A stretch of DNA of 63,998 nucleotides, filler included. It is 4 parts of 4 records of this genome, joined end to end, with 100 filler letters (N's around TTAATTAATTAA, not from the genome) between each part and the next. Parts side by side here need not be neighbours in the genome. Positions count along the whole stretch, not along the records: positions 21,476 to 47,600 come from SRR20825019_1852; 3 more parts are not named here. One strand, written 5' to 3'. The notes under the pieces were generated by a model. It made no database searches. It saw only the letters and a list, made by a program, of their open reading frames with translations, and was not told the DNA's origin. How positions within the stretch are numbered: position 1 is the first letter of the stretch; each line of letters opens with the position of its first letter. This document shows positions 21,376 through 57,228 of this stretch, piece by piece. A program made the translations under genes and the position numbers.

Positions 21376-21475
21376 NNNNNNNNNNNNNNNNNNNNNNNNN
21401 NNNNNNNNNNNNNNNNNNNTTAATTAATTAANNNNNNNNNNNNNNNNNNNNNNNNNNNNNNNNNNNNNNNNNNNN
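21376..21475. other. Artificial contig spacer (N44-TTAATTAATTAA-N44)
   Basis: All-frame-stop linker flanked by Ns, 100 nt. Confidence 0.98.
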
Positions 21476-21666: not shown

Positions 21667-22444
21667 ATGCTGTACAACGCAGCAGTGATTGGCGGGACGG
21701 GCAGCGTGGGGAAGGCCCTGGTCAAGACCCTGCTAGGCTCACCCCAGTGGGGCAGGGTGGTGCTGTTGGGGCGCCGCGAGCTTGCGGAGTTTGCGGACCA
21801 ACCGCAAGTTTCCCAGCATGTAGTCGATATGGACCGGATAGACTCGGCGGCCCTGGAGCATTTGCGGGGGGTTGACGCGTGCTTTGTTACGCTGGGCGTC
21901 GGCGCCCCGGCAAAGACTACCCCAGAAGAACTCAAGGTGCGTATCAGTATTGTGCGGTGCTGGTGACTGTTGCGGTGTTGATGCGGCCGCGTGGTAACAG
22001 CGTATCGACGTCACGGTGCCGAGCAAGTTTGCCCAGGCGGCCAAGACTGCGGGAGTGCGCCATATGAGTATACTTACCGCTGTCAACGCGGACGTGAGTA
22101 AGGCCCCCGGCCGGTCCACCAATGCCGGCAGCTCCACCTACGCCCACTTCAAAGGCCTGGTGGAGGAGAACATTGCGGAACTTAACTTTGAGAGCATGGT
22201 GGCCGTGCGGCCCGCGACACTGATGGGCAGCGCCAACACGCCCGCCCTGGCCGCCCTCGCAGCACGGTGCCTCCGGGTGGCTCTGCCGGCCAAGTGGAAG
22301 GACATTCACGTGGATCAGGTGGCGTTGGCCATGCGCCAGAGCGCCGAGGAGTGCATGAAGAACGAGGGGCCCCCGAGGACTACGCTCATTGGCCACAGCT
22401 TGTTCGCGGCCGCCGCCCCACCGAAGGGGATGGTGGCCGAGTGA
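21667..22444 (+). CDS. HTATIP2/TIP30-like NAD(P)-binding oxidoreductase (atypical SDR), 2 exons
   Basis: Rossmann motif VIGGTGSVGK, LLGRR, DACFVTLG, Y..FKG.VEE, VRPATL; intron 21937-22000 (GT...AG, phase 0). Confidence 0.8.
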
Positions 22445-22630
22445 GCCATGAGTGTACCGTTCGACCTCGCGAGCGGTCATTCGTGGTCTCGGAGCAGCGC
22501 CGATATTGGAGCTGCAGGGATATCCTGTCCCCCGGCCGTGCCGATCACACTGAACAGAAAATTTCACCGCTGCGCAGCCAAAATGAAAATGAAATATTTG
22601 CTTTAATGATCACGGTATGCGACAAACACA

Positions 22631-25600
22631 CTAAAACTTCATGCTGCTACCAGTCCGCGCCAGCTGCGATCCGGGCGTCGACGCGCCACCTCCAGGCTTC
22701 TCGATCTTGTACTTGAGATCCGACAAGGCCACTTTGAGTTTGCTGCGATTCTCGGGGTTGGCCAGAGTCAGTGCGCTGTTCCGACGAGAACCCATGATCT
22801 CGGGCGAGCTATCGAGGCTACCGGACTTAGATGCCTGGGGGGTGACCTCCGTAAGCTCAACGCCGGGGTCGGACTCGTCATCGCGGGAGCGGACATACGA
22901 TGACCGCGGTGCCCGCGAGGGGGTGGCGCCGGTGACCGTGCCTTTGTCCTTGCTCCCGAACATGCCGAGCTTGCGTGCCACCAGGCCGCCAACCGCCGCG
23001 AGCGACCCGCCGCCACACAGAAGCACGCAGCAGGCAACGCAGGGGCACAGCAGGAGGAGGACGGCACTAACCGAGGACAGGCTGGCAATCAAGGCGGTAT
23101 TGTCGCCGCCGCCAGACCCTGATGATGTCGCGGTCTTCTCCACGATGCCGAAGGTCGTGAAGTGGCCCGTGTCACCACTGCAGATAGTGGTCGCTCCCTC
23201 CGCCACCGTGATCTCGCTCTCACACGCCCAGGCGCCGGTGGAGTCCACGTAACTGAAGCAGTATTCGCTCGCGCTCTTGAGCAGGGTGCACGCGAGGCCA
23301 ACGCTTACGCGGGACGCGAATGTCTTGGACACCTCCGTGGACCCATCCGTTGTCGCCGTGAGCTTGAGGTCCACGACCGAGCTCACAAGCGAGCTCGTAT
23401 CCCCCGAATCCGACGGGATCTCGCTGTCCATCACACTCGACACCGAGAGCTGCAGGCCTGACGCCGAGTCGAGGGCGTTCGCGGGGATGGTCACGGAACC
23501 GAGGGAGGACCCGCTGCTATCGGTCATGTCAACAGATGTGTCCGCGCCGTCGTTGAGTTCCGCGGAGGAGTCCTGCGGCTTGCGCTGGTGAGGCGGCGTC
23601 GTGCAGTCCGCAGCAAAGGCGCAGCTCCCATCGAAGCATCGCTGCATGCCGCCAGCGCACCCGCGTGCGCACGCGTCGAGCGAGGACCGGCACTTGCCGT
23701 CCGCGCAGATGATCATTCCCACCGGACATCCATCATACGGCTGGCAAGTGGCCGCGCAGGTGCCGTCAGGGCAGGCCGTCTGGCCCGCGGCGCACGAAGT
23801 CGCCGGGCACGAGGCGTCCGCGGCCGCACATCCTGAAGCGCAGCGCTTGGGCGTTTCCGAGGGGCACTTGGTTGTCTCCACGTAGAATCGGGCCACGCGG
23901 GCGGGTCCGGTCCCGTCGGCGTTTTGCGGCGTGATGCGAGCGTAGTACTGGGTGGATGTGGCCAGGGTGGACCGCGCGATGGTGGCCTCGGTGTTGGTGG
24001 TGGTGCCATTCGTGGCATCGGTCACCGCGCCCGAGGAGAAGGTGCTGTCGGTGGAGTACTCGACGGTGTACGAGAACGGCGCCTGACCCGTGCGCGGGGC
24101 CTGCCAGCTGATCGTTATGTCGGTGTCCGTCTTCTTGACAATGACCTTGCGGGGCTCGCCCGGCGTGGACTTGCTCGTCAGGCGGGTGCTGGAGTAGGAG
24201 CCGGTGCATCCGTTCGAGTTGAGGCGCACGCCGTAAAAGTACTCCACGCCCCACGCGATGCCGCCCGAGGTGCGGTCAATGGTGACCCTGCGGGTGGCCG
24301 TGCCGGTTGCGGCGACGGTTGGGCTTGAAAGGTCGGACGAGGTGGAGTAGACCACATCGTAACTATAGTCACCCAGGGCATCCTTGGGCGGGGACCACGT
24401 GACATGGACAGAGCTCGTGTCCTCCTCCACCCCAACGTTCTCCACAGCTCCGGGGCACTTGCCAAAGGCGACGTACGCCAGCACGACGGACGAATTCGAA
24501 GAGTCGGGCTGGAAGAACGATGTCACCGCAAACTCGTAGTCCTGGCCCGAGGTCAGGGCGGACTCGGAGATCGCCGCGCTGGGCGTGGCCCCCGCGTGCA
24601 CAGTGCCCGCCACCGATCCCCCGGTGGAATAGGACACGACATAGCGCAGGTCAGCCTGGCGGCCATAAGTCACCGCGGGGGCGGTCCAGGCAAGTGTAAG
24701 CGTGGACCCGTCGCTGGACTTGGTGACCTGGCGAACGGGTGCGGGGGCGCCGCCCACGTCCACCTCCACAAGCCCTTGCTCCCCCTCGAGGGAGATGACG
24801 TGGCCCGGGTAGCGGCCCGATTTGGAGCGGTCTCTGATCGTATCCGCGCCCACGGCATCCGCCATGGGCCACCACGCGTACAGCCCCGTCTCGTCACCGG
24901 AGAGCGCCCGTCCCATCTTGGCCGGGCCGACCTCCTCCGACCACAGCCGCAGGTCATAGATGTATCCATTCATGCGGTCGCTAGAGAACCGGGCCGGCGT
25001 CTGGTCAGTGTCGGCCCCGAGCACCCACAGCGTGTTGTAGCTGAACGCGGGAGACGCGGTGATGGCGCGCGAGCCGACCACCTCGTAATTGAGCCAGAGC
25101 GTAAGAGAAGATGTCGTCACCGTCACGGCGACATGGTAGATGGTGTTGGCCTGCATCTCCGCCGCCACGCAGAGGGCGTTGCGCCTCATGTCGGTGGCCG
25201 CAACGCAGCTGTCGCCCTCGAGAACGGTGTTGTCGTTGATCGTGGCGCGGAGCTGCCCGGACCTGTACCCGATCCACAGGGCGTTCTTGGCGGTGGTCGT
25301 GTCCACCACTTCCAGCAGAGTGTGGATCCGGCCGTCTTTCGGGGTCGTGAGCGACATCAGTGACTCCACCGTGAACACACGCCCGGGGAAGAGATGTCCG
25401 AGCTCCACGCGTCCCGTCGCCACCGCGGCATTCGCGCTGGTGTCACCGGTGCCGAGCGACAATACGGCGCGCTTGTCCGAGTCGGTGGCGGGACCAAGGA
25501 ACTTGGAGAGGCTCACGGTCGCCAGGTCGAAGGGTCCGTCCTTGACTCCGTATCCACTGTCAAAGTCCACCAGCTTGGCGGCACCCACGCCGGTGCCCGC

Positions 25601-28600
25601 ACGCTCCAGGATGGTCGTGGCACCGACCGCATCCGTGATCGGATAGTAGGCCGCGAGGCCGGCGGTCAGCGGGGCCAAATGCTTCCGCATCGACGCCTTG
25701 ATGTCGGCGCCGGACCGCGCAGTGCTCCACACCCTCACTTCAGCAATGTAGCCCGCCATCGGGTCCGAATTCCAGCGGTGAGGCTTCTTGCGATCAGTGT
25801 CGGCGCCCAGCACCCACGCGTCGTCAACGCTCAGCTGAGGGAAGCCCCCGTGCGATCCGCGGCCGGACTCGTCACCGTTGATGTATAGGATGGCCTCGGT
25901 GCCCGTCAACACGACGGCGATGTGGGTGGCCTCGCTCGCAGCCATGCCGACATCCACGCACAGGGCGTACCCGGCCTGATTGTTGCACGTGTCACCCTCC
26001 GTCACGGTGCGGTCATTCACCTCGATCTGCATCTTGCCCTTGACGTGGCCGATGTACAAGGCATTCTTGCCGTCGGCGGCCTTGGCGATCTCAAAGAGCG
26101 TCCTGTACTTGTCGAGGCGGGAGAATTGCGCCCACATCTCCACCGTAAGCTCGGCACGGCTGCTCTGAGCCATGCGGCCGGCCAGGGCGGACGGGAGCTC
26201 GACGTGACCCTTGCCAGTGGCACCGCTGAAGAGGATAGATCTGCGGGGCTGGCCAGGGGCCGGGAATGGAGAGTCCTCGAGTCTTCCTCCACTGATGTAG
26301 GCGTTGCCGGCGGGCGAGTTGGTGGCGCCATTGGACAGGATGTTGGAGTCCCAATTGTCGACGCCAAGCATGCTGTACCACGCGTACAGGTAGGGCTCGG
26401 CGCCCGTCAGGGCCTGCTGGCGCCCATCGGCGATGGCGTTGTCGTTGCGGTTGGTGGACCACACCCTCACGTCCCGGATGTAACCATCAAGGGCATCGCT
26501 GGTGAACCGGAGGGGCACGCGGTCCGAGTCGCGACCAAGGACCCACTGGACTTGTGGGCCGAAGGCGGCGTTGACGGGTGTGGCCATGGTGGTAGATGCC
26601 AGGAGCTGTCCATTCATGTAGAGGCGGATGGACTGCGGTGTGACCGCAACAGCGACGTGGAAGGCGGTGCCGGCCTCGAGGGTGGTGTCCTTGCAGAGTC
26701 GAGGGTGGGCGGACGAGCCGCAGGAGTCACCCTCCCAGACGGTGTTGTCATTGATCTCCACCTGCATGCGGCCCTTGACGTAGCCCAGGTACAGCGCGTT
26801 CTTGGAGGTCTTCTCGTCCACGGCCTCGATGATGGTGTGGTACCGGTTGTTCGCAATCTCGCGCCCGGGCTGCACCCACGCCTCCACGGTGAAGCTGGCC
26901 CCCGGCTCCAGCGCGCCCAACGACACCATCCCCTCGGGCGCCGATGCGCTGAAGAGGACCGCCTTGGGCAGGCTGTGAGTGGGCGCGGGTGGCGTCGGCG
27001 GAGGCGCCGGAGCCACCAACGGGAACGGCGACCGCGTGACGCCGTACCCGGCCGGGAACACGGAGAGACGACCGGGGAAGCGGGCCTTGGCCTGGTGATC
27101 GCGGATCGTCACGGCGCCGCGGGGCTCGCGGATGGGGTAATACGCGTAGAGGCCCGGCTCGGACCCGGTCAGCGGGGTGTACCGGGAGCTCTTGATGTCG
27201 TCGGCGCTGCGGGCGATGTCCCAGACACGGACCTCGCCAATGTGGCCGTTGAATGAGTTGTCGGTCCACACCCGGGGCCGGTCGCTGTCCTTGCCGATGG
27301 CCCAGGTGGTGTGCGCTCCGGCCACGCCGAGGGACTCGCCCGAGGGCTTGTCGCGGCGGCCTACCAGCACCCCGTCGACATACATCCGCACGTCAGTGGG
27401 TCCGACCACGGCCACCACATGGTATGGCACGCCGGCCTTGGCCTGGAAGGCGGTGCAGACTGCAAAGTCCGACGTCATACGGCAGGTGTCGGCCTCCCAC
27501 ACGGTGGAGTCATCCAGGGTCACCTGCCAGTTGCCGTCCACGTAGCCCATGAAGAAGGCGTTCTTGGCGGTCGTCGTGTCCACGGCCTCAACTATCGCGT
27601 AGCGGGTGCGCCTGTAGGACACGGCGTCCCACTGCACGACCGCCTCCACGGTGTATACGCCTCCGGGCGACAACTGTCCCAGCTCCACCACGCCGCCATT
27701 GTTCTTCCCGTTGAAGCGGAGAGCCGCGGCGGGAGTGGCGAGCCGGCCGAATACATCGGCCTTCAGCGACGCGCCTGAGCCCACGAGCGCGGCGGAGTGG
27801 GCGTTGCCCTCACTCAGGTCCTCCATGGGGCCGGCGGCGCCCTGGACGCCGGGAAGCCACAGCCGGAGCCCTCCGTCGCTGGCAATGTCGATCACATGCT
27901 TGGCATGGTACTTGATGAGGGACGCGTCGCGGCTGCCGGCCCACACACGCACGTCTCCGATGCAGCCGAGGAGCTTGTCCGAGTTCCACCGGTGTGGGGT
28001 GCGGTCCGTGTCGGCCCCGAGCACCCACACGGTGTCGTTGGTGAATGCAGGCGCGCCATACTCAAGATCCAGCGAGGCGGCCTCGTCGCCGTTAATAAAC
28101 AGCTTCGCCTTGTCTCCAGCCCGGTCCGACTGCACAGTGACGGCCACCCAGAACGCGGCATCAATGTCGGGGCGGAAGGAGTGGCAGATGGTCCGCTTGG
28201 TGTCGCGGCAGCTGTCGCCCTCGGTGGAGGTGCGGTCGTTGAACTCGGCGAAAATGCGGCCATTCGAGTAGCCCAGATAGAAGGCGTTCTTCGCCGAATT
28301 GGGCGCCAACGCCTCGACGATGGAGTGGATGCCCTTGGAAGGATTCGACAGGGACACGCGCGCCTCAAACGTAAATGACCGGCCCGGATTGAAGGCGCCG
28401 ATGCGCCCGTACTGTTCCTCCGACGACGGCGATGTCGGGCTGAAGCACAGCGCCCTCTTCTCGAGCGGGCCGCCGCGGTGGAACGCCAGTGTGGATGCAG
28501 TCGGGGCCGGGGGGGTGGCAAGGGACGGGGGGCGGATGTCATTCACCACTACCTCCGCGCTCCCGTACAAGGTGGCATCGTGCGCTCCAGCGGCGTCCTC

Positions 28601-31600
28601 GAGCTTCGTCGAGCCCGGCTGCTCGGTCATCGGCCAGTGAGCGTACATCCCGGCCGAGATATCGGTGGGCGCACGGACACCGCGGAACACCCGCACGTCC
28701 CACACCGTTCCCTGGTGGGGATCCGACGTCCATTGAGGCGGCGAGCGGTCAGTGTCGGCGCCCAGGGTCCACTCGACGCCCGGCCCAAAGACGGGGGCGC
28801 CACGGCTCATCAGGGCCGACGTGCCCATGAGCTGTCCATCCACGTACATCGCAAGACCGTCCGCGCCGACCGTAACGACGACATGGTACGGCCGGTCGGT
28901 GATGGCGGCGGAGGTCGACGGGCATACCTGCGTGATTCCGCGGCGGCCGCAGCTGTCGCCCTCGTAGTACGTATCGTCGTTGACCACGGCCAGCCAGCGG
29001 CCCCTCATGTTGCCGATATAGAGCACGGACTTGGCCGAAGCCGTGTCCACCGCCTCCAAGAGCGTGCGGTACGAGTTGAGATTGTCCTCGAACTTGACAT
29101 GCATGGAGATGGTCAGCTCGGCGCCCGGCTGGAGCGCGCCTAGCGAGACGCGGCTGCCGTCGGTGCGCCCGGGGAAGGAGACGGCATTGCCATGGGCCAT
29201 GAGACGCGGGAAGGGCGACGGCACCAGGCCGACCTTGGTCGACGAACCAAATCCGGTCAGCTGACCCCGGGCGGCCTTGGTAACGGAGTCGTACAGCGTG
29301 GTGTCGGATGACGGCTGCTGCATGTCCCAGGATGCCAGCAGACCCTTCTCAGTGCCGGACACGACGTGCGCGAACGCATCGGCGATGGCGGCATCGGAGC
29401 GGTATCCGCCCCAGATGCGAATGTGGTTGATCAGCCCGTGGAACTTGTTGCTCGTAAACTGCGTGGGCGAGTGGCGATTCGTGTCGCGACCCACCGACCA
29501 CTGCACGTTGGCGCCGAACCGGGGCGGGCCGGCGGTCAAGGCCACCGCGCCGATCTGGACACCGTCAACGAAGAGCTCGGCCGCCTCCGGAGTGACGCGG
29601 ATGGCAATGTCGTAGAGACGATGCCGCTCGGTCGGGAACTCGAAGCACCCGGCGTTGGGCTCCGTGCAGGAGTTGTATTCCCACACATCGCGCTGGTTGA
29701 CCTCCAGGATGAACTTCTTGCGGTCACGGTACCCGAGGTACAGGGAGTTGTAGGCCGATGTCGAGTCCACGGCGTTGATGATATTGCGAATGCCATTGTT
29801 GCTGAATTGCATCATCCTCAGCTCCACAGTGAACACCGGCCCGGGGTTGATGGCGCCGAGCTGAACCTCGCTGGACTCGCCACCAAACGACAGCGCCTTA
29901 ATGCTGTCGGCTGCGTGGCTCACGACGCAGGTGCGGTTGGTGTTGTCCATGGTGTTGCCCTCAGGGCAGGACCTCACACAATTCTGCCCCAACAAGTACA
30001 GTGGCGCCGCGCACGAAGTGCACTTGCCGGCCGCCCCCGCGCACGAGGCGCACTCGTCGTTACAGGCCTCGCACGCCTTCCGGCCGCGGGGGAGGTAGGT
30101 GCCGTGCGGGCACTCGTCATAGCAGCGGGTGCCGTTCAGAACGTAACCCTTGGCACAGTGGCTGCAGGTCACGGCGTCCGGGCCGCAGCGGGAGCAGGCC
30201 TCATCACAAGCCTCGCAGATGCCATCGTTGTCATAGGTTCCGTGGGGGCAGGAGGTGCGGCACTCGCTCTGGTACTGCACGCGGCCCTCGGGGCACGTCA
30301 GGCACCGCCGGCTGCCGCTGCCGGAGCAAGATTCGCACGTGCTGTGGCAGGAGCGGCAGCGGCCATTCGATCCGTACATTCCCAGCGGGCACACATCATA
30401 GCACCGCGCGATGCCGGCCTCGGAGGTGTCCAGGTAGGGCTCGTCGCCTCCGCAGGAGGTGCAGTGGGTCTCATTCTTGGAGCACGTCAGACAGTTACCG
30501 CTGCACTGGAGGCACGTGTTCTGGTGAAGGAAGCGGCCCTGCGGGCAGGGATGGACGCACTCGTTGTTGAGCAAGCCGCGGCTGCCGCCGCAGCTGAGGC
30601 AGTGGTCCGTCTTGCCCGCGCCACAGGTCTTGCAATTGTTCGTGCACTTGTGGCACTGATTGTTGATCTCCACCTGGTCGGCGTTGCACGAGTCCTGGCA
30701 CACCCGGCCGTTGCTGCTCAGAGCGAGGTGCTCGGGGCATGAAGTGCAGTGGTTCCAGCTCTTGCAGGTCGAGCACTCCGATCGGCACGGCCGGCACACG
30801 CCGCGGCGCGAGCCGTAGCGATAGGTCCCGGCAGGGCAGTTGGTGGTGCAGGTGCCGTTGTGGAGCCAGGTGCCGAGGTCGCACCGGGTGCATGTCGTCG
30901 GCGATCCGTCGCACCGGTCGCACGGGTCTTGACATTTCACACACACGTTCGCGCCATTGCCGACATAGCCGTGCGGGCACGATGTGCGGCACGACTTGCC
31001 AAACAGGAACCGTCCGTCGGGGCAGCTGGTACAGTGGCTCGACCGCCCACTGCACGTTTCGCAATGCTTGTGGCAGTTGTAGCACTTGCGATGCCTGGCG
31101 TGGCCGTACTTGCCCTCGGGGCACTCGGCCCCGCAGGTGCCGTTGTGGAGGTAGGATCCGAGCAGACACGAGCTGCAGGTGCTGCTGTCCGGGTTGCAGG
31201 TGCGGCATTGCAGCTCGGGGTCGCAGGGCACACAAGTGGCGGTGCCGTTGATGACCTCGGACACCTTTCCCGCCGCACATCTCCGCACGCATGTCTGCCC
31301 ATCCATCGACCACTTGTTGTGGCAGGCGGTGCAGGTCGCCGTGTTGCCCGGTGAACATTCCTTGCAAGGATGCTTGCAGCGAGTGCAGACTCCATTGACG
31401 GGGGTGCGGCCAGCCGGGCAATCGGAGACGCACTGGTTGTTGGAGAGACTCTGGCCCGTCGGGCACGACGTGCACTTGGTGGACGAGCTGCACGTCTTGC
31501 AACCCGACGCACAGGCAAGGCACCGCCTTCCCGATCCGTACATCCCGGCGGGGCACGCGGCCACACACTGGCCGTTCAGGAGGAACTTGCCGTTGGGGCA

Positions 31601-34600
31601 GTCCGTGCAGGTCTGCGCATCCGAGCAGTAGCGGCAGGCCGATGGGCACTGGACGGCAACACCACCCTCGAGGTAGTGGGTCTTGGGGATGTGCTTCTCC
31701 AGGGAGCAGCGGGAGTTGTACAGGTAGCGGGGCTGCGTCGAGTTGTAGTTGCACGAGAGGCACGCCGCGGAGGACGTGGAGGTGCAGCTGACGCAGGACC
31801 AGTGGCAGTCCCCGCACGCATCGGCGCCCGAGGCGAAGGTGCTCGAGGGGCATTCGTCCCAGCAGTTGCCATCGTGGAGGCGGCGGCCGGCAGGGCACGA
31901 TGTGCACTGGTCGGCGGGGCCATACTGTGCGCAGGTGGCACAGTCATCCGAGCACTTCACCAGGGTCCGCGTGGACTTGTCGCCGTAGTAACCTGCGGGG
32001 ATCGCGTTGTAACGAACGCACGTGTTGTCTCCACTCAGATAGAAGTTCGACCGGCAGGCAACGCAGTTGGTGGTGCTGCCGTCACAATCGCTGCACCCCT
32101 CGGCGCAGTATTCACAGTTGTTGTCAATGTTGACCTGGTCGGACTTGCAGTTGCGCGTGCAGTTTGCGGCTCCGTTGGGGTATGACTCGAGGGTGTAGCC
32201 GCTCCGGCACCGGGTGCATACGGTCTCCGAAGAGCACCGCTGGCACACACTGCGCGGCTCGCATCGCGTGCAGACCCCGTCCTTGTTGTGGTAGCCGTGC
32301 GGACAAGCGGACAGGCAGCGGCCGTTGTAAAGGCCCCGGCCAGCGGGGCATGTCAAGCACTTGCGGGTATCAGCGCACGTGGCGCAGTTCCAGTTGCGAC
32401 GGCAGCTGGTGCACTCGCCATTCTTCGCATATTTTCCCTCGGGGCAGGTGGAGTTGCAGCTCGAGGTGGCGGCGTCGAAGGCGTGGTCGGGGCTGGCACA
32501 GGAGAGGCACTGCGAGGGAGTGCGGGTGCAGGTGGCGCAGGTGTCGTCGCACTCCACACACGCGGCCGTGCCGTTGACAATTGACCCGGCCGGGCAGTCC
32601 ACGAAGCAGTTGCTGCCCAGCAGGCGCTCACCCGACGGGCACTTGGTGCATTGTTCCGCGCTCCCAGCGCACTCTGCACACTGCTCGGAGCACTTCGCCG
32701 TGGTTCCGAATCTGTTGTAATATCCCGAGGGGGCCTGGTCCACACAGCTGCCCGCGTGAAGGACCCGCCCGCCCGCGCACGAGGTGCAGTTGGAGGCCAG
32801 CCCGGAGTTGCACAGGGCGCAGTCGGCATGGCACGCCTCGCACTTGCCGGCGGCCTCGTAGGTGCCTCCCGGGCAGCTGCCCACACACTGGGTGCCGTAC
32901 AGCTTCAATCCCCCGGTGCACGATGCGCACGTGTTCGCGTCGTTGGTGCAGACACAGTTGGTGTCGCACTGCCGGCACTCGCCGCTCACGTCATCGTTGA
33001 AATAGCCCGAGGGGCAGGTGACCACGCAAGTGCCCGCATGGAGGAAGCGCCCGGTGGCACACGTCCTGCACTGGGCGGCACCGCTGCCCGAGCACGTCGC
33101 GCAGGTGGAGTCGCAGTCGACACACGCATTGTTGTTGACAAACTGGTTGGATTGGCACTGCGAAACACACGACTGGCCGCTCTGGAGGTACTGCGACGCG
33201 CAGGCGGTGCAGTTGGAGGCCGAACCGAAGCAGGCAGAGCACCCGACCCCGCACGGCACGCAAGCGCCCGCGACCCTGGTGTGGGCGGCGGGGCACGGGG
33301 TGACGCACGTGGATCCGTAGGAAACCTTCCCGGCGGGGCACTGCAGTCGAAAACAAAACAGTCAGTAAACCACAAATCATTCTCGGATTGACGGTTCCCC
33401 GCTCACGAAACGACACGCAACTCCATTTGATTCCGCCATACCGCCCAAATCACAAGATCCCCATAACACGAATCCAATTCACTTACGCTGGTACAGGTGT
33501 CGGTCGTCCCCTGGCAAGTCTGGCAGTCGTCATTGCACACATCGCATGAGGTGCCGCGGTCAAGGGTGCCGGCCGGGCACGACGCCACGCAGTTTCCGTT
33601 GTAGAGGCGGTGAGAGGAGGGGCAGGAGGTGCAGAACACCTTCAGGCCGTCCGCCGACTCGCCACAGCCCGCGCAGTTCTGGCCGGCAGGGCAATTTACA
33701 CAGGTCCGATCCGAGGCGCGGGCGTAGGTGCCGAGGGGGCACTCGGAGGTGCAGGTGGAAGAATGCAGGAAGGTGCCGGCCGCGGCCGCGCACCCGCTGC
33801 ACGTCGTGTTAGCAGCTCCAGTGCAGCCGCCGGAGCACTCCACGGCACAGGGGCTGCAGTGCCTCGTGCTGGAGTCCGCATAGGTCTTGGAGGGACACGA
33901 TGCCACACATGATCCGGAGTGGAGGAACTTGCCGCTTTCCGCACACGCGGTACAGTCGCCGGCCCCCGCGCCGGTGCAGGTGGAGCAGGCGCCGTTGCAG
34001 GCGCGGCACACGCGGGCGGCGGTGTCAAGGTAGGTGCCATCGGGGCACTGCGCGAGGCACTGTCCGTTGTAAAGATTCGCGTCGCTCTTGCACGAGTAGC
34101 AGTTGCTGGCCCCAGTCCCGGTGCACTCGAGGCAGGACGAGTCACAGGTGGTGCAGACGCCGGACAGAGGGAAGGACCCGCTGGAGCATGACGGGCCGCA
34201 CACTGCCCCATTCAGTACATTCCCGTTCTTGCAAGAGGTGCAGGTGGTAGCGGTGCCCGAGCACGTTTCGCAGGAGGCGTCGCAAGGCTCACAGGCCCCA
34301 GTGGCGGCATTACCAAAGTGGCCGGCAGGGCAGGCCGACAGACATGCACCGAGGTACGCAAACGAGCCGGCGGCACACGCGGTGCAGTACGTGGCCTCGC
34401 TCTCACACCGCACACAGGGGGACTGGCACTGCTCGGTGCAGCCGTCCCAATTGACGAGGCGGTAGCCGGCACGCCGGGTGGCGTTGATGACCTCGGGGAT
34501 CGCATTGATTCCTGTCAGGGTGCCACCCGAGTGTGCGGAGATGGCCCCGGCACCCTTGAGGCCCATCAGACCCGTGTAGACAGCATCCGCGATGGATTGA

Positions 34601-37318
34601 GGGGTGGCGCCGTTCGCCCAGTCTCGAGGATCGACGTTCCACCTCACCATTCGGTAACCCATCGCCTCCACAGTCGCAATAACATCGGCGTTAGTCTCGC
34701 CGAAAGGCGGCTGCATGATCCGTGGCTGGGCCGGGGACATGTTCAGGGCGTCCAAGGCGGCCTCGCTCGCGGTCAGCTCATCACGGATCTGAGACTCGGA
34801 CAGCGTGGTGAGCGAAGTGCGGGAGTGGGTCGCCGATGCCACCGTGTGCCCCTCCGCGGCGATCTGGCGCGCCAGCGAGTCGTGTCCTCCCCACTCCAGG
34901 CGATTTGTCGTAACGAAGAACGTCGATGGCGCCTGTTCGGCGGCCAGGGTCGCGAGGAGGGGCGGGGTGAACTGATGATGAGGCACCGTTCCGAACGCAA
35001 GCATCATGCGGCGGCCAATCGTACACCCGTACACGACTCCGGAGGGGGAGGGCGCCGAGCCACAGTCGGCGGAGCACGTCGCCGTGGTCTCCTGGCCGTT
35101 GCACACGCCATCACCACACACCTCCCGGCAGTCGGCCTGGCAGCCCTCAGACAGCAGACAGTGGCTGTTTTCGGTCCCGCAGTATCCGTTCTTGGAGCAG
35201 CACTGGCCGCTCGAGCAGCGTTGGGACGGCCCGCACCTCTCCACGGCGCGGAGGCACTGATCCATCGTCACAATCTTGTAGTTCTTGGCACGGAGAGCCG
35301 CCACCACGCGCGGGAAGGCGTTGACCGAGTGGAGGTGGGTGTCGTGCAGGACCGCAATCGCGCCATGCGGCGCCAGCGCATCGGTCTGGGCCGTGGTCTG
35401 CTCCACAACCCTGTCGGAGTCCCCGGGGTAGCGGTGGTCCTCGGGATCCACGTTCCACAGCACAAGCTCATATCCCATCATCTGCGCAATCTCCTGGACG
35501 CGGGCATCATACTCCCCATATGGGGGGCGCAAAAAGCGGGGCTTTAAGCCAGTGGCGTCCTCAATGGCCACCGCCGCGCGGTTGAGCTCGTACCGGATAG
35601 TGGCATTGTCCATGGCGGTGAGGGCAGACTTCATCGTGTAAGTCTGGGACAGCACGGCGTGGCCCTCGGACGCCATCCGCTTCGCCACGCTGCTGTGGTT
35701 CGTCCAGCCCTGGTCAAGGCGCTCCGCATGGACAAAGAACGACAAGGGAACGTTCAGGTCCTTGGCATAGTCCAACAACCGGTCCGTGTAGGGGGACATT
35801 GGCCCGTCAGAGTACGTCAGCGCGATCTCTCGCTCGCCGGTGCACGCGCGGTGGACGCGGGCGGCATCAGGACACACGCCGCAGTCCTGTGCACAGTCTT
35901 CGCAGGTCTCGGCGCCGTTGCAGGATCCATCACCACACGAGATCTGGCACTGGAGGGTGGTCAGTCGCTCGGAAATCAACAGCACATACTCAACACTCAC
36001 GTTACTCTGGCAGCCGCGGGACGCGAGGCAGTGGTGGCCAGTGGTGCCGCAGTAGCCGTCCTTGGAGCAGCACGAGGCATCGGGGCACGGCGCGGTGCTG
36101 TTGCAGGTTTGCACGGGGTATATACACTCCTGCTGAGACACGATACGGTAGCCCTTGGCCTCGGTCGAGTTGAGGATGTGGTCCAGCACTAGGTCCGTCA
36201 CAGGCACCGAGTGCGCCAGCGTGTCGTGCTGCAGGTGAATCTGACCGTGTGGGGCGCGGAAGTTGAACTCCCCTCGCCAGTACGCGGCAATCTCCGCCTC
36301 CTGGCCGGCGCTGTAGGCCCAGTCGCGCGTGTCCGTGCTGTAGTGCACCACGCTCATACCGAAGTCCTCGACGGTCTCGATGACAAGGTCGTTCAGGGCG
36401 CCATAGGGCGGCCGGAAGAAGCGCGGCCGCACCCCCGCGATCTTCTGAACCTCGTACACGCTCTTGCGCAGGTCCTCGCGGATCTGCTCCTTGTTCTTGA
36501 GGGTGTAGTCGTCGTGGGTCCAGCTGTGCACGCCGACCTCGTGCCCTTCGCGCACGATGCGGCGGAGGATGTCCGCGTGGTCTCCCCACGTCAGCCGCTC
36601 ACCGAGGACGTAGAAGATGGCCTTGACACCGCGGCGAGCCAGTATGTCCAGGATCTTAGGGGTGTTAGTCGACTCCGGCCCGTCGTCAAAGGTCAGGGTT
36701 ATGGTGCCTGGCGGCAGGCAGCGCTTAATAGAGCCCAGAGGAACCGGGCACTCACCGCAGTCCTGGCAGGAGTAGCACTGGGGGGCATGGTTAGCTGGCA
36801 CTAGGCACCGCGACCCGGCCCTTCCAACTCACCGTCTCGTCACCGTTGCACACGCCATCACCGCATGTCATCGTGCAGTTGGCCGTGCAGCCCGCCTCCA
36901 GCAGGCAGTGGTCCGGCGAGCTACCGCACTGGCCCCATTTGGAGCAGCAGTGGCCGCTAGGGCACGGGGAAGTGGGGCCGCACAGACCGCCGCCCGCGGG
37001 TCCTTCCTCCTCCTGGTCACATTGACTCAGGCACCCGCGGCTGGGCAGGCAATGGTCGGACGTGTAGCCGCAGAAGCCGAACTTGCTGCAGCAGGCGCCG
37101 TTGGCGCAGGGCTGCATAGCGAGGAGGCCGAGTCAGCAAATAAAAATAAAAAAATGAAGAAAAAAATATCAGAAAACAAAACAAATCTCCACACTCACCG
37201 TGAAAGCATCGCACGCCGTGGCGGACACTGGCCGCGGGGCGACCAAGGCTGCCACAAGAGCAGCCAGGGTGACGGCCAACGCCACTCCCTGGCCAGCACT
37301 AGTGTGCCGATATAACAT
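22631..37318 (-). CDS. Giant type I membrane protein (~4,782 aa): signal peptide, hevein/CBM18 modules, 3 NodB/CE4 polysaccharide deacetylase domains, furin-like Cys-rich repeats, 7 LamG-like domains, 3 FN3, Cys-rich repeats, ZU5/GAIN-like region with GPS-type motif, TM, short tail
   Basis: Five phase-consistent exons: 37318-37199, 37111-36833, 36777-36001, 35949-33487, 33340-22631, all with GT-AG introns. Motifs CCSKxGxCG, TFDDGP/HSWTH/RPPYG, CxxCxxxCxxC repeats, FTVEAWV...VRVW, WxAP FN3, HFTTFGIV, hydrophobic TM. Confidence 0.9.
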
Positions 37319-38569
37319 AATTGTATGCAGTTCTGATTAAATAGGGGCTAGGGTATAACTGTATTGGAAGGATCAGTTATGCATATGTGCGAATTACCAT
37401 CTCAACAACCAATCCATACCTTGCAAAAAAGACGAACTGAAAAGAAAGAAAGAAAACAAGAAAGCAAACTATAGAGTAAACAGAAAGTGTGAACAAGTCT
37501 CGAAAGTATTCAAAGATTCTTCGTTACTTGATCCTCGATTTCAGAGATCAGAAAGTTAAACTTTGAGAGGTATCCTATTATTTGAGAAAGACGACTATCC
37601 CAAAACAGCAGAACGTTCACCCTGAGTGGCCATTCCATATAAATGAAGAGAAAAGTAGAAACTCTCGGTCTCCGTGAATGAGGCAAGGGGGAGGCGACAT
37701 CAGCGGCAGAATAGGCCGGATATTCCGTTGAGCACGTGCCACAGATGGGGCCTGTCTTGGCAGCCGTTAGACCGGCCCAACAACTAGCAGAGTCCACTGG
37801 TTGGCTCCGAACAGGCGAACTCCAGGCTCCACTTCCGATTGATTGTGGACCATTCGCGGGGACTGGTGAGGAGGCTGGAGGTCACCGAACGTCATGTGGG
37901 GATGGGTAAGATATAGGCTAGTAGACTAAGTCCGAAAGCACGCGGTGTTGGCGATCCGGTGGGTCATGGTGATGGAGCCCTGGATGATCACCTGGTAATG
38001 TGGGTGGCTAGGTCCGGCCGGCTGTGAGGGGAGCCTCGACATGGAGCCTACTTGCACTGCTGCTACGTAATCAGCCGAGCGTCAAAAATAGCAGGAAGAA
38101 GCGAAGCGATTGGCCGAGGTGAACCGACGTCTTCAGTTCCTCTCTAAATCTGAACCGGCCGACTTACCAACGTAACCGATAACACGCTTTGAAATTGCAA
38201 TTGGGAGCTGGAACTTGGAACGTTCAGAACGTTCACCGAATAGGTTTGGTTCTGTGAGAGGTTGGACTTCTGGGGCTGTATGAGACGACGTCCTCACTTG
38301 AGAGCCGAACCCCTAACGCCGCAATTGGTGGACATGTGGCAATAACTAAATTGGGAAAGAAAAGTAGCTGATCGGACTCAAGTATTCCAATTTTGTTGTC
38401 CGTTTGGCCCCACCGGCAGGCTGCGACCGGTTCATCGACTCGCGCTTCACTGCTGGTCGGAGCCAATTGGGCCAGGCACCAGCAGGCTCGGCTTCTGGAC
38501 TGGCCACAAGATGTCGCCCTCCCCTGGGGGCTTGAGACTCACTAATAAACCAACCAACCGTCAACCACC

Positions 38570-39249: not shown

Positions 39250-42200
39250 TTACTTCTGCCGCCCCCACCTTCCAGCCGTATCATGAGACGGACTGCCCTT
39301 GTTAACGGATCCCATCCGGCGAAGGTGCAGCGACGGAAGATTCTCGCGGGATGAAAGCCTTCGTAACTTAGCGGGCTTGCTGGCCGTGGTACCGTGGAAC
39401 TCCTTGTTGAGCGCCAGGGCTGGAGGAATGAGTGGTTAGTGGACACGGCGCAGAGCCAAATGTCGAAGCATGCACCCACCCGCCGCAACCAAGTCGGGGC
39501 CGCCCGACGAGGCATCGTAGCTCATCGACTTCTTGTGGCCACTGTGTACAACATGTGAGTGAGACAAGCGCGCGTCCCGTCCGCCCGGCAGCCACGTACC
39601 CCCTGCGGGCTTTCATTCGGGACTCCTCAGGAGCGGGCGATGCCCCGCGGATGCCAGGTGCCGGCCGACGGCGGTCGGGGCTCGGGCTGGTGGAGCGCGG
39701 TGGCACCGGCTTGCCACTGTCGCTGGAGCGGCGGGTGGTATCACCAAGCTGCTTGACCTTCATCCGAGACATGCGCGGCTCATCCTTTTCCACCGTGCCC
39801 GCCGAAGCCTGCGGTGACTTGCCCACAGTGGTTTCCCGGGACACCCCTCCGTTCTTGGCGCGCTCAAGCCGCTCCTTCTTCCGCTGCTGGTGCTCCTCCC
39901 GCTTGCGCTGCCGCAGTAAGTCAGCCGCTATCCGTGTCACGGGCCAAGCGCCTTGATGTTACCTCCTTCTCCTGCCGCTCGCGCTCGTGCCTTTCCTTGC
40001 GCTCGCGGCGGCGCTTCTCCTTCTCTTCGTCCTCCTTGCCGCCCCCTAGCTCGGCAATCATCATCTTTTGCAGCTGCAAGGCGGCCACGTCCATCAGCCA
40101 CAGGCCAGCGGCCACACATCGGTCAACACAAACCTTCTTCTTCAGCTTGGCCGTGGTCTGGTCCTCCGACAAGCCGGCATTGTTCAGCGCCTGCAGCATC
40201 TCAAACTTCTTCTGCAGGGAGGCAAGCTTGGAGCCGCCGTCATCGTCCTCCTCGCCCTCCTGTGACGATCGCTCTTCCGAGTCGCCTTCGTCGTCCTTCT
40301 TCATGAGGGGGGCGGGGCGGTCCGCCTTGAGCTTCGTAAGGTTCATCTTGGTGACCTTCCACAGCGCCTGGCCTGACCGCTTCTCACTCGCCGTTGTCGA
40401 CGCGCTCTCGCTTCTGTCACGGCCCCCGTCGGCCTGGCCCTCATTGAGGCTATTCTTCTTGATGTGGTCGACGGCGTTGCCCAGCGAGTTCCGCATCTTG
40501 CTCCACAGGATCTTGCCCATCACACTAGAAGCGTCCGAGCTGACCACCGTGCCGTAAGACGCCTCGCCCACAACCACAATCCACTACGAAAATCTAACCT
40601 CTTCCGTGTGTCGTCCTCCTCGCCGCCGGGGCTGTCCCGGTTGCCGGCGGCGATAGGGACCGGGGACGAACGGCCATTAGTGGACAGAACCCGCATCGCG
40701 GTCAACGGCTGGAGCTCGTCGTCATCCTGGCAGGACAATCAGGTCATGTGCAGTCTGGCCCAGAAGCCCTCTCCTACTCACCTCGCCGGCTTGCGGCACA
40801 GGGGTCAGTTTGCCCCCGGAGCCGCTCAAGGAGCTAGTCAGGCGCTCCGTGCTCGACAGCCGCCGCATCTGCGGTCGGGTCAGCCACTATCGTTCCAGAA
40901 TTAGTCATGCACAGACCTTATTGCCGGAGGAGACCTCCGCCCCCTCCTGCTTGTCAATCTCGGCGTACATCTTGTCGAGGAGGGCCGCCTTCTTCTTGCC
41001 TGCGTCGCCCAACACGAATGAGTCCCGAATCGTGGCATCACACACAACCACGCAACCCCACCCTTGAACATGGCCTCCAGCTCCTCCAGCTGGGCGTGGA
41101 CATCCGGGTGCTGGCCGCCCAGAATCTCGGCCTTGTACCGCACCATCTTGCCGTACCATATTGCCGCCGAGTCAAGCCGATCATTCGTCTCATACAGCGA
41201 CGCAAGGTAGCCCACCGTGTCGATGTTGAGGTGGTGGTGCGCGCCGAGTGTTTTCATCTGTTGCGCAATTGTTAGCCGCGGGAGGCTGCGGGGCCGCGGG
41301 CGTTGGTACTCACAATGCCGCTTATCGCCGTCTTGAACTGCGACTCGGCCTCCTCGTAGCTGCCGTCGGCCGCGTTGCAGTAGGCAAGGTTGGCCAGGGT
41401 GAGGTTGTAGTCCGCGTGAGCTTTGCCTGCGCATGTCTCAGCGCCGGGGACTGTGCACGGGCCACAGTGGGGCAACTTACCGAGGAAGTTTTCCTGGTGC
41501 TGGAGCGACTGCTCCACGGTGATGATGGCCTCGCTAACCTCGCCCTTGGACCGGTGGAACTCACCGAGGGCATTCAAGGCCTTGAAATACTCAAACACCC
41601 CGCCAGACGGCGACCTGCACAATGATCGTCAGACGATAGAGCAACTTCACACAAGCCGGCTTGCCTTTGAATGGTCTCCAGGGCGTTCTGGAAGGTGTTG
41701 AGGGCCTTATTGTGGTCCTCCATCACGGCCTGTGTCTGTCCCAACAGCAGCATCGCCCTGGTATAGTAGTAATGCCCCGACCCCACGGTCTCTTCAAACA
41801 CCTCCAGGGCGGAGGTGTACGACGACACGGCATAGCTGTACAATCTAGCAAGAAGGGGAGTTCAGCACCAGGGGGGAGGTCACCCCGCACGCCTCGCCCA
41901 CCTTCCCGTGGCAAAGTGCATCTTGCCCGTGGCCATCAACGCCAGTCCGTACGCCGGGTGCCTGCACCCCACCGTCAGAACACACCCACCGACCCAGGAC
42001 AATGCGACCCCACTTCTCTCCAAAGAGCGAGTAGGCGATGTTGGAAACGTTCTGCAAGGCCACGTTGGCGTCGTCAAACTTGGCCAGGTCCTGCAGGACC
42101 TCCGCCTTGAGCATCAGCAGCTCCGCGTGCTCCCAAGAGTACTGTTGGGGCCCGTCAGATGCAGGAGGCATTAGCACTGGAGGGCGGCGCTCACCTGTTG

Positions 42201-45200
42201 CCTCCGGTGGATGTCAAAGTCGGTGATGAAATCTAGGAACTCCAGCGCCTCCTCGTGGGTGTAACGGTTCGTGGCCAGTAGCCGCGCAAACTTCCGCAGG
42301 ATGCGCATGTATTTCTGGAGGGGGGTGATTGAGCAAGGCCATACACGGCTGGGCGATGAGGAGGTGACATCATACCATGGGCGCGGTGTCCACGGACACA
42401 TTGGCAGGCCGGACGGCGGCGTCGATCTTACGGAAGGTCTTAACGGCGGCCTCGTACTGCACGTTGCGATTGAGGGCCATTGCATACACCTCAAGGACGG
42501 CGGATGCGGTGTCGAGGTTCCCCGCGATGAGGTTGTCGACCGAGCGCTCCCACTGGACCTTCGAATGCGAGTCCTTCCTGCAACACAATCCGGTCAAATA
42601 CCAATACAAACACCATGGGAAATGCCGGTGTAACGGGGCGGTTGGCACACTTACGGGCACACGATGTTCTCGCACCACAAGATCGCAGCACGACCAGATT
42701 CGGGGCTGCCGTTGGAGTTAGGGCGGGCGCAAGACTGCGATGACAAAAGGGCGGGACTTGGCCTACCTGAAGCGCTCCAGCATGAGGAGACGGGCAACCA
42801 TGATGAATGAGTCGAGGTGGAGGTGGCCGCGGGCCGCGGAGAGGGCGGTCTTGGCGTTCTTGATCTTGTCGTCGAAGAGCGAATGGTTTGCCGTCGACAC
42901 CTTGCTGCACATCAGCAGCATTTCGGATATGATCTCGTGCGGGGTGCCCTTCATCGAGTCATAGTCGCCCTTCAGGGTTTCAGAGTACTTCTTCTTACGA
43001 CCTGCATGCACAGCCACCGTCAGTGAGAGAAACACCAGGCCGCCACGGCGGCACCCACCCTCGTCATCATCCACGTGCTCGTCAGTCAGCGCCCCAGGCA
43101 CCAGCGCCACCTCGTGCACACGCGTGATGTATCGCCCATACACCATCTTGGAGATTGCGTCGGCGCGGTTGTAGATGAAGTCCTTACTCTGGAGCATGAT
43201 CACGGTGTCACGGAACACATTGCGGTCCACCGCACAGCTCATCTGTTCGTAATCAGACCATTCAGACATCCGAATGCCGCCCTGCCCACTCGCGCACTTA
43301 CCACCCTGACCACGTTCTCGTGTCGGTCCTCCGTGAAGATTTCGATGTTTCGCTCTATGAAACTACGAAGACCTGCGGACGAATGCGCCGCTTCGGTCAG
43401 TCCCGAGGCCATGTGGACGCCACAGAATATTTCCTGGAAGGACCGGTGGGAGAACCGGTAGTAGTCATCATCGTCATCATCGTCCACGCCGACCGGCCGA
43501 CCAAGCACCTGGACAACACACTGAATACGACGCCTGCGGGCGTTCTCCACACTTTTCTTACCGGGACCATGAGAGGGAGGCGGTTGCGTTCTATCAACGA
43601 GACGACGTCCGACAGTGTGATGTTTGCATCGCCATCGTGGAGTACACCCTCCACGCCAATCAACGATGTGTTGCTCCGCTCCGCCTTGTACTGCATAAAC
43701 TCGAACTGGCACACGTATTGCTGTGATGGGAACGCGGGTCAGTAAACATCACTGTAGGCACGGACAGGGACAGTACCGTGGCGTCGACCTGCTTTGCATG
43801 GGCCACCTTGGTAAGCAGCTCAAGGGACTTGTTTGCGATCTCCTCCGCCCTGACACACTGCATTAATATCCCCAACCCGAGCACGGCCCGCACGACCAGC
43901 CCACCTCTCATAATTGACGTCCTCGCTCATCGGGGTGCCGGGGGTGCTAGCAGAGGATGGATTCCGCGACTTGGAGGGTTTCGCGGGCAAGGAATCGGCC
44001 AGCTTTTTGTTCACATCCGTTAGTGTCTGCGAGGTAGTGCGCTCGTTTGCCCCAGGGCTGCCGAGTGATGAAATATTCCCGGTGCCAATCGGAACGCTCC
44101 TCCTCCGTCCAGATGCTACACCACGCAGGGACATCAGCGCAGTCACAATCCCCCGAGTGGCCGCCCCAACCGTACCTTTCTGCTGTTCTTTCAGGGCCGT
44201 GGTGAGAGCAAGTTTCATCACGGCAAGAAGTGCCTCGAAGCGCGACGGCGGAATGTTCTTCACAATCTTCTCCCACTCCCCTGAGGACACCTTGTACACA
44301 TAGAACTAGGGCACACAGACAGTCAGCACCAGCGCCCCCCGAGGCAACACCGTCAATACCAGAAGGTTCGCCATCAGTGGTGACTCCGCCAGCGACATGA
44401 GGGCGTAGTGCGACCCCACGGACGCCTCCCACGAGGCGTACTCCGACTGGGCAACATTGCTGCCGATCTGTCCGCGACGGTCAGCCCTCGCTTTCGCTCT
44501 CTTTCTCAATCGCCTCACCTCTGCAAGAAACATTCGCTCGTCCGCCGCGAGCTCCTGAATCCGCACGCCATAAAACCACTTGAGCCTGATCATGAGGTCG
44601 CTCGGGACCTTGCGCCCCTTGTCGATGCCGCCCTCGGCAGAGATCAGATCACGCACTATCGTGCCATTACCCGCACACATCAGTCGCGCCGCCAGTCCCA
44701 CGTCACCGCTGCACAGCAGAACCCCCGTGCTTCCAGTGTGCCCCGGAGAGAACTCCATGCTGCAAATACGGTCGTGAGCGGTGGAACAACAACAAGAAGT
44801 AAGATTGAATACGTACCAGTGCAGCATCTGGATGACGTTGCTGCGGTCATTTCTTCCGAGGCGGTCAAAGTCGTCCAACATGTAGATCACCCGCCCCTGG
44901 TCCGCGCACCACTCGTACAGCTCCTGCTCCCACTCTCCCCACTTCTGAGTGGCCTTCATGGACCTACGGAGAGCGCTGTGGTCCCAGAGGCCGTCCAGCG
45001 CATCGACAAGGTTGGGCAAGGATATGTAGACGGGGAGCATGGAGTTGCCAAAGGTGACGGCCTGTTCAGACGAATCCATGAGGCTGATGTCATAGCCCAT
45101 GCACATGAGGTTGACCAGCTGGTACATCAGCACTGTCTTGCCCATGTGGGACTCCCCGGTCAGCACCACCCCGTTCAGACGATGGCGCCGCTCGGAGTAG

Positions 45201-47600: not shown

Positions 47601-47700
47601 NNNNNNNNNNNNNNNNNNNNNNNNNNNNNNNNNNNNNNNNNNNNTTAATTAATTAANNNNNNNNNNNNNNNNNNNNNNNNNNNNNNNNNNNNNNNNNNNN
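47601..47700. other. Artificial contig spacer
   Basis: N44-TTAATTAATTAA-N44. Confidence 0.98.
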
Positions 47701-47702
47701 CC

Positions 47703-48455
47703 CTCGATGCCGAGCGTGAGCAGAGGGAAGGTAATTCTGATCGGTTATTGCGGATGAATGCGTGGGCGATGTGGAGGTTTGCAGTATCATCATCAAAGTG
47801 GAGGGTTGCAAGGATGTCCCTGGATTCGACAATCGCCTCACTCAGGAGGTCGTTGTTGGAGGCGGAGGATGATGTTGCGTCGGGGAAAGATGCGGTTATC
47901 GTGAGCCTCCAGCGACGGGTTGATACATACTGCGATGAACATAAAAGTCTCTGGAGTGTGATCGAAAGCGTGACCGACGCACGCAACGAAGGGGAAGTGG
48001 AGGTAGTTAGTCTCGAAGAAGCGAGGAGCCGTAGCCGCGTCGAGCGAGACTACTGGGCGGGCATTCCTGTGTTGAATATGCCACCTGTGGACCCTTGCCG
48101 TATTCTTCGATGTGTGTTCAATAAGTGGAGGAATTTAGTTTATGTTCGAAGTATTGAAGATGTGTCAATGATGAGGGAGCGTATCCGCGAGCTGGAGTCT
48201 GTCATAGCACATGCTCTTGAGGTTGAGCGAGGTGTGATGGGGGATGAGATTCGACAGGACGTAGAGGCTGATGTTTGTGAGCGGATGCTAAAATACTCTC
48301 GGAAAGTAACCACCTACCACCACAATCTAGGAGATAGGGAAGGCTCCCCCGAGGAGAGGATGAGTAATGTGGTTGTATCTGTCGATGAGCTCGAGGAGAT
48401 GATGAGTAAGGCGCGAGCAGATTTTGCTATTTTATCGAGCGAAGCAGAGTTTTAG
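47703..48455 (+). CDS. Hypothetical coiled-coil protein, 5'-partial
   Basis: Frame is open from the contig start through ORF 47748-48455; E/R-rich helical composition. Confidence 0.6.
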   Translation, partial: LDAEREQREGNSDRLLRMNAWAMWRFAVSSSKWRVARMSLDSTIASLRRSLLEAEDDVASGKDAVIVSLQRRVDTYCDEHKSLWSVIESVTDARNEGEVEVVSLEEARSRSRVERDYWAGIPVLNMPPVDPCRILRCVFNKWRNLVYVRSIEDVSMMRERIRELESVIAHALEVERGVMGDEIRQDVEADVCERMLKYSRKVTTYHHNLGDREGSPEERMSNVVVSVDELEEMMSKARADFAILSSEAEF

Positions 48456-48555
48456 ACTGTATATTGTATGCCTTTTCCTTATCTCGCGTTAGTCCATTTT
48501 GCTCATGAATGTGCTGGTATATGCATACACTTGTAGTTTTCCACCCTTGATAGAT

Positions 48556-57187: not shown

Positions 57188-57194
57188 CTTTGCC

Positions 57195-57221: not shown

Positions 57222-57228
57222 CTAAAAA

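Follow-up and report, generated by a model that had tools for sequence, protein, structure and literature searches.

A giant spliced eukaryotic gene joins a chitin-binding, deacetylase-type tip to an adhesion-type membrane stalk

We analyzed a window of 63,998 nucleotides (nt), by which we mean the whole stretch of DNA under study, and found on its minus strand, from 37318 to 22631, a real, single and spliced gene whose five exons encode a type I membrane protein of 4,782 amino acids (aa). The product carries a tip of chitin-binding (CBM18) and deacetylase-type (CE4) domains on a long stalk of furin-like, LamG and FN3 domains, followed by a juxtamembrane domain, a membrane span and a short tail. 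Each of these modules is known; the pairing of an enzyme/pseudoenzyme chitin tip with an adhesion-type stalk is unreported. We propose that the protein may be a membrane-tethered adhesin-enzyme for chitin-like polymers of N-acetylglucosamine (GlcNAc), preferably those of foreign chitin, a reading to which we give a probability of roughly 0.45, a little below even odds. The host of the gene is a single-celled, intron-bearing eukaryote.

Before joining, the minus strand of the locus shows two long open reading frames (ORFs; 1,141 and 3,576 codons) and, upstream of these, a short one. Joined at GT-AG sites, the five exons give one open frame with one terminal stop. Exon 1 (37199-37318) contains the ATG and the signal peptide (aa 1 to ~33, by hydropathy) and is followed by exons 2 (36833-37111), 3 (36001-36777), 4 (33487-35949) and 5 (22631-33340). 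The four introns are all in phase 0 and measure 87 nt (37112-37198), 55 nt (36778-36832), 51 nt (35950-36000; in frame and free of stop codons) and 146 nt (33341-33486), the last one lying between the tip and stalk exons. We found a sole public run containing this stretch (hereafter X1), the kind of run being off record. Nineteen X1 contigs align to 21800-38000, with depth present in 30 of 30 bins, and they omit exactly the four predicted introns (33340/33487, 35949/36001, 36777/36833 and 37111/37199) as well as one intron of a neighboring gene. Because of these five exact GT-AG skips, we read X1 as RNA, which we infer to come from a slightly different strain. The joint at 37111/37199 has 162 letters on its short side. 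On this reading, one outside data set shows the gene to be expressed and its product spliced. X1 depth declines from the 3' to the 5' end of the gene, a trend left unused since contig depth cannot show levels.

The first-pass annotation of this DNA, made from the letters alone, had described a single five-exon gene, and the continuous frame and the X1 joints bear this out. It also held that an unspliced intron at 33486-33341 would undo the model; contig 5 of X1 skips that intron at the predicted bases, leaving 186 letters on the shorter side of the joint. The depth of the intron-4 bin (2.77) is the value expected from one spliced contig of depth 3.79, which fits there being no contig over the intron. 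A split of tip and stalk between different products, whether through two genes or an assembly chimera, is hardly credible and already largely refuted. It might be argued from the absence of any listed X1 contig covering the gene end to end, from the depth being lowest near intron 4, and from the window being a concatenation of four pieces. Yet the gene lies wholly within one piece (21476-47600), contig 5 comes from a different strain and splices intron 4 in frame, the furin-like repeats cross the tip-stalk junction at regular spacing, and the last exon lacks a signal peptide. Since no listed contig spans the whole gene, a minor short isoform may accompany the full-length product. Hydropathy gives only two hydrophobic stretches, at aa ~7-32 and ~4627-4668, and the type I topology initially proposed thus holds, with a signal peptide and a single hydrophobic region near the C-terminus.

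A Pfam search on 17 protein pieces resolved the tip into four Chitin_bind_1 matches, arranged 2+1+1, and three Polysacc_deac_1 matches (E = 1e-37, 2e-25 and 9e-22). CBM18 modules 1 and 2 (aa 41-118, 36878-37111; PF00187, two stretches, E = 5e-14) precede the first CE4 domain (CE4-1, aa 153-352, 36121-36720). Module 3 (aa 357-392, 36001-36108; E = 3e-7) precedes CE4-2 (aa 428-625, 35251-35844), and module 4 (E = 9e-6) precedes CE4-3 (aa 700-897, 34435-35028). All four CBM18 matches to PF00187 have the Cys core, the Ser and the aromatic residues of the family, the fourth scoring 26.3 bits against a cut-off of 27.8. We also observed, ahead of each CE4, a 25-aa Cys module of CGDG type that had gone unmentioned before, so that the repeating unit is CBM18-CGDG-CE4. 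The first copy (aa 122-146) is interrupted by intron 2, the second (aa 396-420, 35866-35940) is shared with a fetched protein, P0076, and the third lies with CBM18 module 4 in aa 630-692 (35050-35238). The domain order therefore agrees with the initial description of a long stalk that bears a chitin-binding tip of deacetylase type.

Chitin is the ligand of CBM18 modules, and NodB sites that are intact, including the Asp-His-His metal triad, strip N-acetyl groups. The five CE4 motifs are defined as TFDD, H(S/T)xxH, RxPY, DxxDW and LxHD (PMC5855634). All are intact in CE4-1 (TFDDGP at 162, HSWTH at 217, RPPYG at 255, DTRDW at 282 and LQHD at 315), which is predicted to be active and to be the sole catalytically intact CE4 domain of the protein. 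CE4-2 reads TYSDGP and QTYTM and lacks the general-base Asp and both metal His. CE4-3 (AFGTVP, ATHSR, QPPFG) lacks the same residues and, in addition, the metal Asp and the Arg of motif 3. Since the general base and both metal His are lost, CE4-2 and CE4-3 are probable pseudoenzymes, and the idea of a triple enzyme falls, the catalytic and metal residues being present in CE4-1 only. Two inactive CE4 proteins, ECU11_0510 of Encephalitozoon and BA0150 of Bacillus, have likewise lost the general-base Asp and/or metal His (PMC5855634, PMC10967932). These stand alone, whereas in our protein one chain carries an intact copy and the dead ones in tandem. In a tree of 31 rows chosen from the fetched proteins, out of 126 CE4 bearers, CE4-2 pairs with CE4-3 (98/93), the latter on a long branch. 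Other tandem-CE4 proteins (P0140, P0096 and P0150) also combine intact and degenerate copies, and they do so in separate clades of the tree; active-plus-dead arrays therefore arose more than once. In P0140 the two CE4 domains group together, which implies that its dead copy arose separately.

The best solved-structure match of CE4-1 is the Aspergillus niger CE4 (7bly, E = 4e-30), and its best solved matches are a mix of fungal chitin deacetylases and bacterial peptidoglycan deacetylases. For this reason the substrate of the protein is deduced from the CBM18 modules and not from CE4-1. The tree leaves CE4-1 unplaced, and we thus make no claim of fungal or bacterial origin. A tip aimed at bacterial peptidoglycan, or at other GlcNAc polymers, would make the protein a capture receptor for bacterivory. 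The best solved matches include enzymes deacetylating the GlcNAc of peptidoglycan (5o6y, E = 4e-27), the top partial NCBIfam matches are bacterial (all under the cut-off), and bacterial DNA is present in the assembly. Nevertheless, this reading is very unlikely: CBM18 is a chitin module, the fungal enzymes MrCDA and AnCDA are inactive on peptidoglycan (PMC5855634), and peptidoglycan is concealed in Gram-negative prey.

The stalk begins with furin-like Cys-rich repeats (aa ~896-2352, 29924-34440), which intron 4 splits and which Pfam recognizes as furin-like, GF_recep_IV and VSP repeats. A repeat pattern defines 27 cores, mostly 45-52 aa apart, with three double-length gaps, hence about 30 repeats, as the first-pass annotation had estimated. 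They are followed by seven LamG domains (aa 2358-4070, 24770-29908; Laminin_G_3, E = 8e-18 to 3e-8), 27-38% identical among themselves and all seven above the PF13385 cut-off. A model of one LamG built from the seven aligned repeats reached a predicted local distance difference test score (pLDDT) of 83.9. With this model, Foldseek retrieved PAPP-A (E = 8e-12), pentraxins and bacterial glycan-binding LamG folds, which at the level of the model confirms a concanavalin A/pentraxin-type fold. All seven copies have an invariant Cys pair, an acidic E-x-D-S/T-C loop and a G-x-D-T/S-D/N-R motif; the conserved loop and G-x-D motif could possibly be Ca2+ or ligand sites. Three FN3 domains come next (aa 4077-4366, 23882-24751; PF00041, three stretches, E = 1e-18), then short Cys-rich repeats (aa 4370-4462, 23594-23872) of no family, for which there was no match by Pfam or NCBIfam, nor among the plasmids scanned.

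Pfam thus recovered all the furin, LamG, FN3, CBM18 and CE4 modules of the domain order first listed, but the ZU5/GAIN label of the juxtamembrane domain (aa 4466-4616, 23132-23584) found no Pfam, PDB or fold support. There was no Pfam match, the PDB sequence search gave only E>0.1, and Foldseek found nothing with a single-sequence model that is itself poor (pLDDT 38.5). An Atlas search returned a ZU5 cluster at 0.86, which is a lead only, and all leads from the Atlas searches scored below 0.9. What the domain does have is a GPS-like end, C4574-x-x-Y...W-A-C...C-S-G-D-T-G-H-F-T-T-F, about 20 aa ahead of the membrane and including HFT at aa 4606-4608. A GPS-style pattern, composed after viewing the sequence, occurred in none of 200,000 shuffles and in three of 276 fetched proteins, each time at a visible GPS. 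In its C-x-x-Y...W..C...C...H-F-T-x-F arrangement directly before the membrane and its putative HF/S-type nucleophile, this end resembles the autoproteolytic GAIN/GPS domains of adhesion G protein-coupled receptors (aGPCRs) and PKD1 and the HF/S ZU5 domains (PIDD). In contrast to a GAIN domain of ~320 aa (a helical subdomain A and a 13-strand subdomain B), only ~150 aa are available here, leaving no room for the six-helix subdomain A; C-S-G stands for C-x-C, and there is no seven-transmembrane region. Short GAIN-B-like domains are common in single-pass proteins of protists. Tetrahymena and Dictyostelium both have GAIN domains (PMC3321182), and HF/S is where ZU5 domains cleave (PMC3210808). We consider membership of GAIN or ZU5 unproven and autoproteolysis at HF/T plausible, perhaps at even odds. 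Force-dependent shedding, as first proposed, is not supported as written, as both it and the GAIN/ZU5 assignment hang on one motif.

Beyond the transmembrane region (aa ~4630-4668, 22976-23092), which includes a Cys cluster, lies a cytoplasmic tail of 113 aa, rich in Ser, Thr and Arg, which with the stop codon occupies 22631-22975. It has no credible Pfam or NCBIfam match, the only one being a DUF below the cut-off, and the label of receptor is thus without support, because the tail carries no known domain. The protein is not an adhesion GPCR, with a single hydrophobic region and no seven-transmembrane domain after the putative GAIN, nor a receptor kinase, with no kinase domain found by Pfam in the tail. 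It could conceivably work as a mechanosensor akin to aGPCRs or PKD1, in which pulling on the tip would expose the strand after HF/T and signal via a partner membrane protein. The GPS-like motif lies immediately ahead of the membrane, as this would require, GAIN occurs in Tetrahymena and Dictyostelium (PMC3321182), and aGPCRs of holozoans contain LamG, FN3 and furin-like domains (PMC12716839). We regard it as highly improbable, given one hydrophobic region without seven-transmembrane domain or channel, a tail without domain, and no more than a putative GAIN fold.

The first-pass annotation was aware of no described protein combining these modules, and we found no catalogued equivalent either. 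A phmmer search with exon 4, which covers two CE4 domains and about six furin repeats, against 1.84 billion representatives gave 30,458 hits (E<=0.001). Among the best 150, which we examined, about 145 are furin-repeat proteins, and local profiles detect CE4 in 5 and LamG in 2. A protein having both parts should outrank the 150th hit (182 bits). No protein uniting a CBM18/CE4 tip and a LamG/furin stalk occurs among the 276 fetched proteins; just two of the 126 carrying CE4 reach two furin-core matches, against 27 here. Exon 3 retrieved 1,271 hits, of which the 120 listed are CE4 proteins; most of these are bacterial fusions of CE4 with a glycosyltransferase, and Pfam marks neither furin nor LamG in any of the 120. 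Word-index protein searches with exon 4 (7,999 candidates) and with the LamG region (2,143 candidates) returned nothing, which is weak evidence. When metagenomes were scanned with one LamG, 7 loci came up (26-30% identity), and all of them lacked CE4, CBM18, FN3 and the juxtamembrane domain. Scans of genome contigs, viral contigs and plasmids returned no match, and there is no paralogue elsewhere within the window. The literature gave no description of such a combination, in a search leaving out most subscription papers. Intron-rich protist genes are probably under-represented in the representative library.

The closest known systems match one half of the protein or the other. The CBM18-CE4 deacetylases of fungi and of Plasmodiophora brassicae (PbChiBD1-6) also have a signal peptide, one or two CBM18 and a five-motif NodB domain; they are short and secreted or anchored, whereas here the unit is tripled, with two degenerate copies, and is carried by a stalk of ~3,700 aa that a transmembrane segment anchors. 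In Plasmodiophora, 6 of 9 CE4 proteins bear CBM18, and the CBM18 proteins bind chitin in vitro (bioRxiv 10.1101/2020.12.23.423615). The pair, first taken as fungal, is hence not restricted to fungi, being found in Plasmodiophora and in P0076. The latter (448 aa) shares the order signal-CBM18-CGDG-CE4 and a hydrophobic C-terminus, and is 37% identical to the CE4-2 unit over 238 aa; P0140 (629 aa) has three CBM18, one dead and one intact CE4. Both differ from our protein in lacking the furin stalk, the LamG and FN3 domains and the GPS-like domain. Conversely, P0147 of Tetrahymena thermophila, P0130, P0141 and P0014 (a Fonticula alba receptor kinase) share long furin-like or VSP-like stalks, P0130 and P0141 also LamG and the GPS motif, and P0147 the GPS motif, but they are without CBM18 or CE4. 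Several hydrophobic segments are present in P0130 (which also has REJ and PKD-like domains), P0141 and P0147, and a kinase tail in P0014. P0130, P0141 and P0276, of ~2,440 aa, have two LamG, furin-like repeats, REJ (P0130), GPS and several hydrophobic segments, which we read as suggestive of PKD1-like protist receptors. The aGPCRs of choanoflagellates and filastereans use LamG, FN3 and furin-like domains, with chitin unmentioned in the available part of that source (PMC12716839).

How might such a protein work? Four CBM18 and two dead CE4 grooves would provide a multivalent grip on a GlcNAc polymer outside the cell, and CE4-1 could convert the gripped surface to partly deacetylated, cationic chitosan. 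Held away from the cell by about 30 disulfide-rigid repeats, seven LamG and three FN3, the tip would have a reach of roughly 100 nm (a rough estimate from domain sizes). At HF/T the GPS-like motif may self-cleave, in which case the ectodomain would stay bound non-covalently and be releasable under load. The target would be foreign chitin on the surfaces of prey, host or particles during attachment or feeding, which we prefer because reach and avidity exceed the needs of short anchored wall deacetylases. A more specific version, in which a wall-less protist uses a sheddable ~100-nm tether to grip prey or host chitin by its lectin modules and its repurposed dead deacetylases, edits the contact patch to chitosan and, through an autoproteolytic site, lets go under load, is unlikely.

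The organism's own chitin might be the target instead: the molecule would link a cyst wall, theca or lorica to the plasma membrane and mature that structure to chitosan, and GPS cleavage would free the cell at excystment. The cyst or spore walls of many protists contain chitin and aphelids have chitin deacetylases (PMC6299283), P0076 and P0140 resemble wall-type deacetylases, and the Plasmodiophora study, with CBM18 in 6 of 9 CE4 proteins, leaves a wall-building role open (bioRxiv 10.1101/2020.12.23.423615). We find this somewhat doubtful, as no chitin synthase was seen among the scanned ORFs of the window (the window only, with no whole-genome search) and the ~3,700-aa stalk is beyond what a wall deacetylase needs.

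Several observations weigh against an adhesin-enzyme for foreign chitin. As a rule, known proteins that pair CBM18 with CE4 are associated with the wall of the organism that makes them. CE4-1 is 38% identical to bacterial CE4s, equal to its identity with any eukaryotic CE4, and its placement in the tree is weak (66/43); because of this bacterial similarity and the lack of placement, the enzyme domain leaves chitin versus peptidoglycan unsettled. A hidden Markov model of three GPS sequences gives 3.4 bits, a score exceeded by 7 of 500 shuffles, and GAIN homology is not significant. A second organism with the full architecture was not found, the protein being seen in one organism. Finally, strain differences are not evenly spread. 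Of the 73 X1 differences, 40 are listed, 37 of them inside the coding sequence. Overall, 26 of these 37 are synonymous and 11 are not, while synonymous sites make up 24% (p = 5e-9, or 6e-6 if all were transitions; ratio of non-synonymous to synonymous polymorphism about 0.14), and the gene is under purifying selection, a point in favor of the proposal. Yet CE4-2 and the module preceding it have 5 non-synonymous against 2 synonymous differences, compared with 6 against 24 elsewhere (post hoc p = 0.016), a weak hint that the CE4-2 unit (35251-35866) may be under relaxed or diversifying selection.

The window consists of four unrelated pieces joined by artificial N44-TTAATTAATTAA-N44 spacers (21376-21475, 47601-47700 and 57088-57187), with G+C contents of 0.53, 0.63, 0.55 and 0.32 in order, and the neighborhood across spacers is therefore meaningless. 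Piece 2 (21476-47600, G+C 0.63) harbors the gene. Upstream of it, ~39400-47200 on the minus strand is a multi-exon region in which a weak match to an AAA_22 NTPase (44309-45325, E = 0.002) comes before TPR repeats (41275-41861), which tentatively suggests an NTPase-TPR layout. The tail-to-tail neighbor (~21800-22510, plus strand) has an intron spliced in X1 (21934/21999), in which 12 bases are also missing at 22452 and a 152-base loose end occurs at 22509. Piece 1 (1-21375) comes from an intron-bearing eukaryote, which may or may not be the organism of piece 2, and encodes an Adaptin_N protein that we take to be gamma-adaptin-like, an ABC-2 transporter and a TLDc protein. Piece 3 (47701-57087) has four same-strand, apparently intronless ORFs with pyrimidine-rich spacers between them, including a 2,100-aa acetyl-CoA carboxylase and a leucine-rich repeat protein; it may be kinetoplastid-like, in which case the assembly would contain a second eukaryote. 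Piece 4 (57188-63998) is bacterial, with a UvrB that shares 66% identity with a Bacteroides finegoldii record, an ECF-type sigma factor and a 2OG-Fe(II) oxygenase, and the assembly is therefore mixed.

The novelty of the gene is tempered by its known modules, its presence in one organism and the frequency of shuffled giant surface proteins in protists. Still, little is known of the surface molecules with which free-living protists recognize and hold their prey or substrates, and the gene is a splice-verified candidate for prey or substrate recognition. It also adds a case of CE4 domains reused as probable binding modules next to an active copy; P0140, P0096 and P0150 show the same pattern independently. 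Should the more specific and unlikely version hold, in which a sheddable tether edits the contact patch, the protein would combine the design of an adhesion receptor with a tip enzyme that edits polysaccharide, and would offer an initial molecular entry to the way protist predators or parasites recognize chitinous targets.

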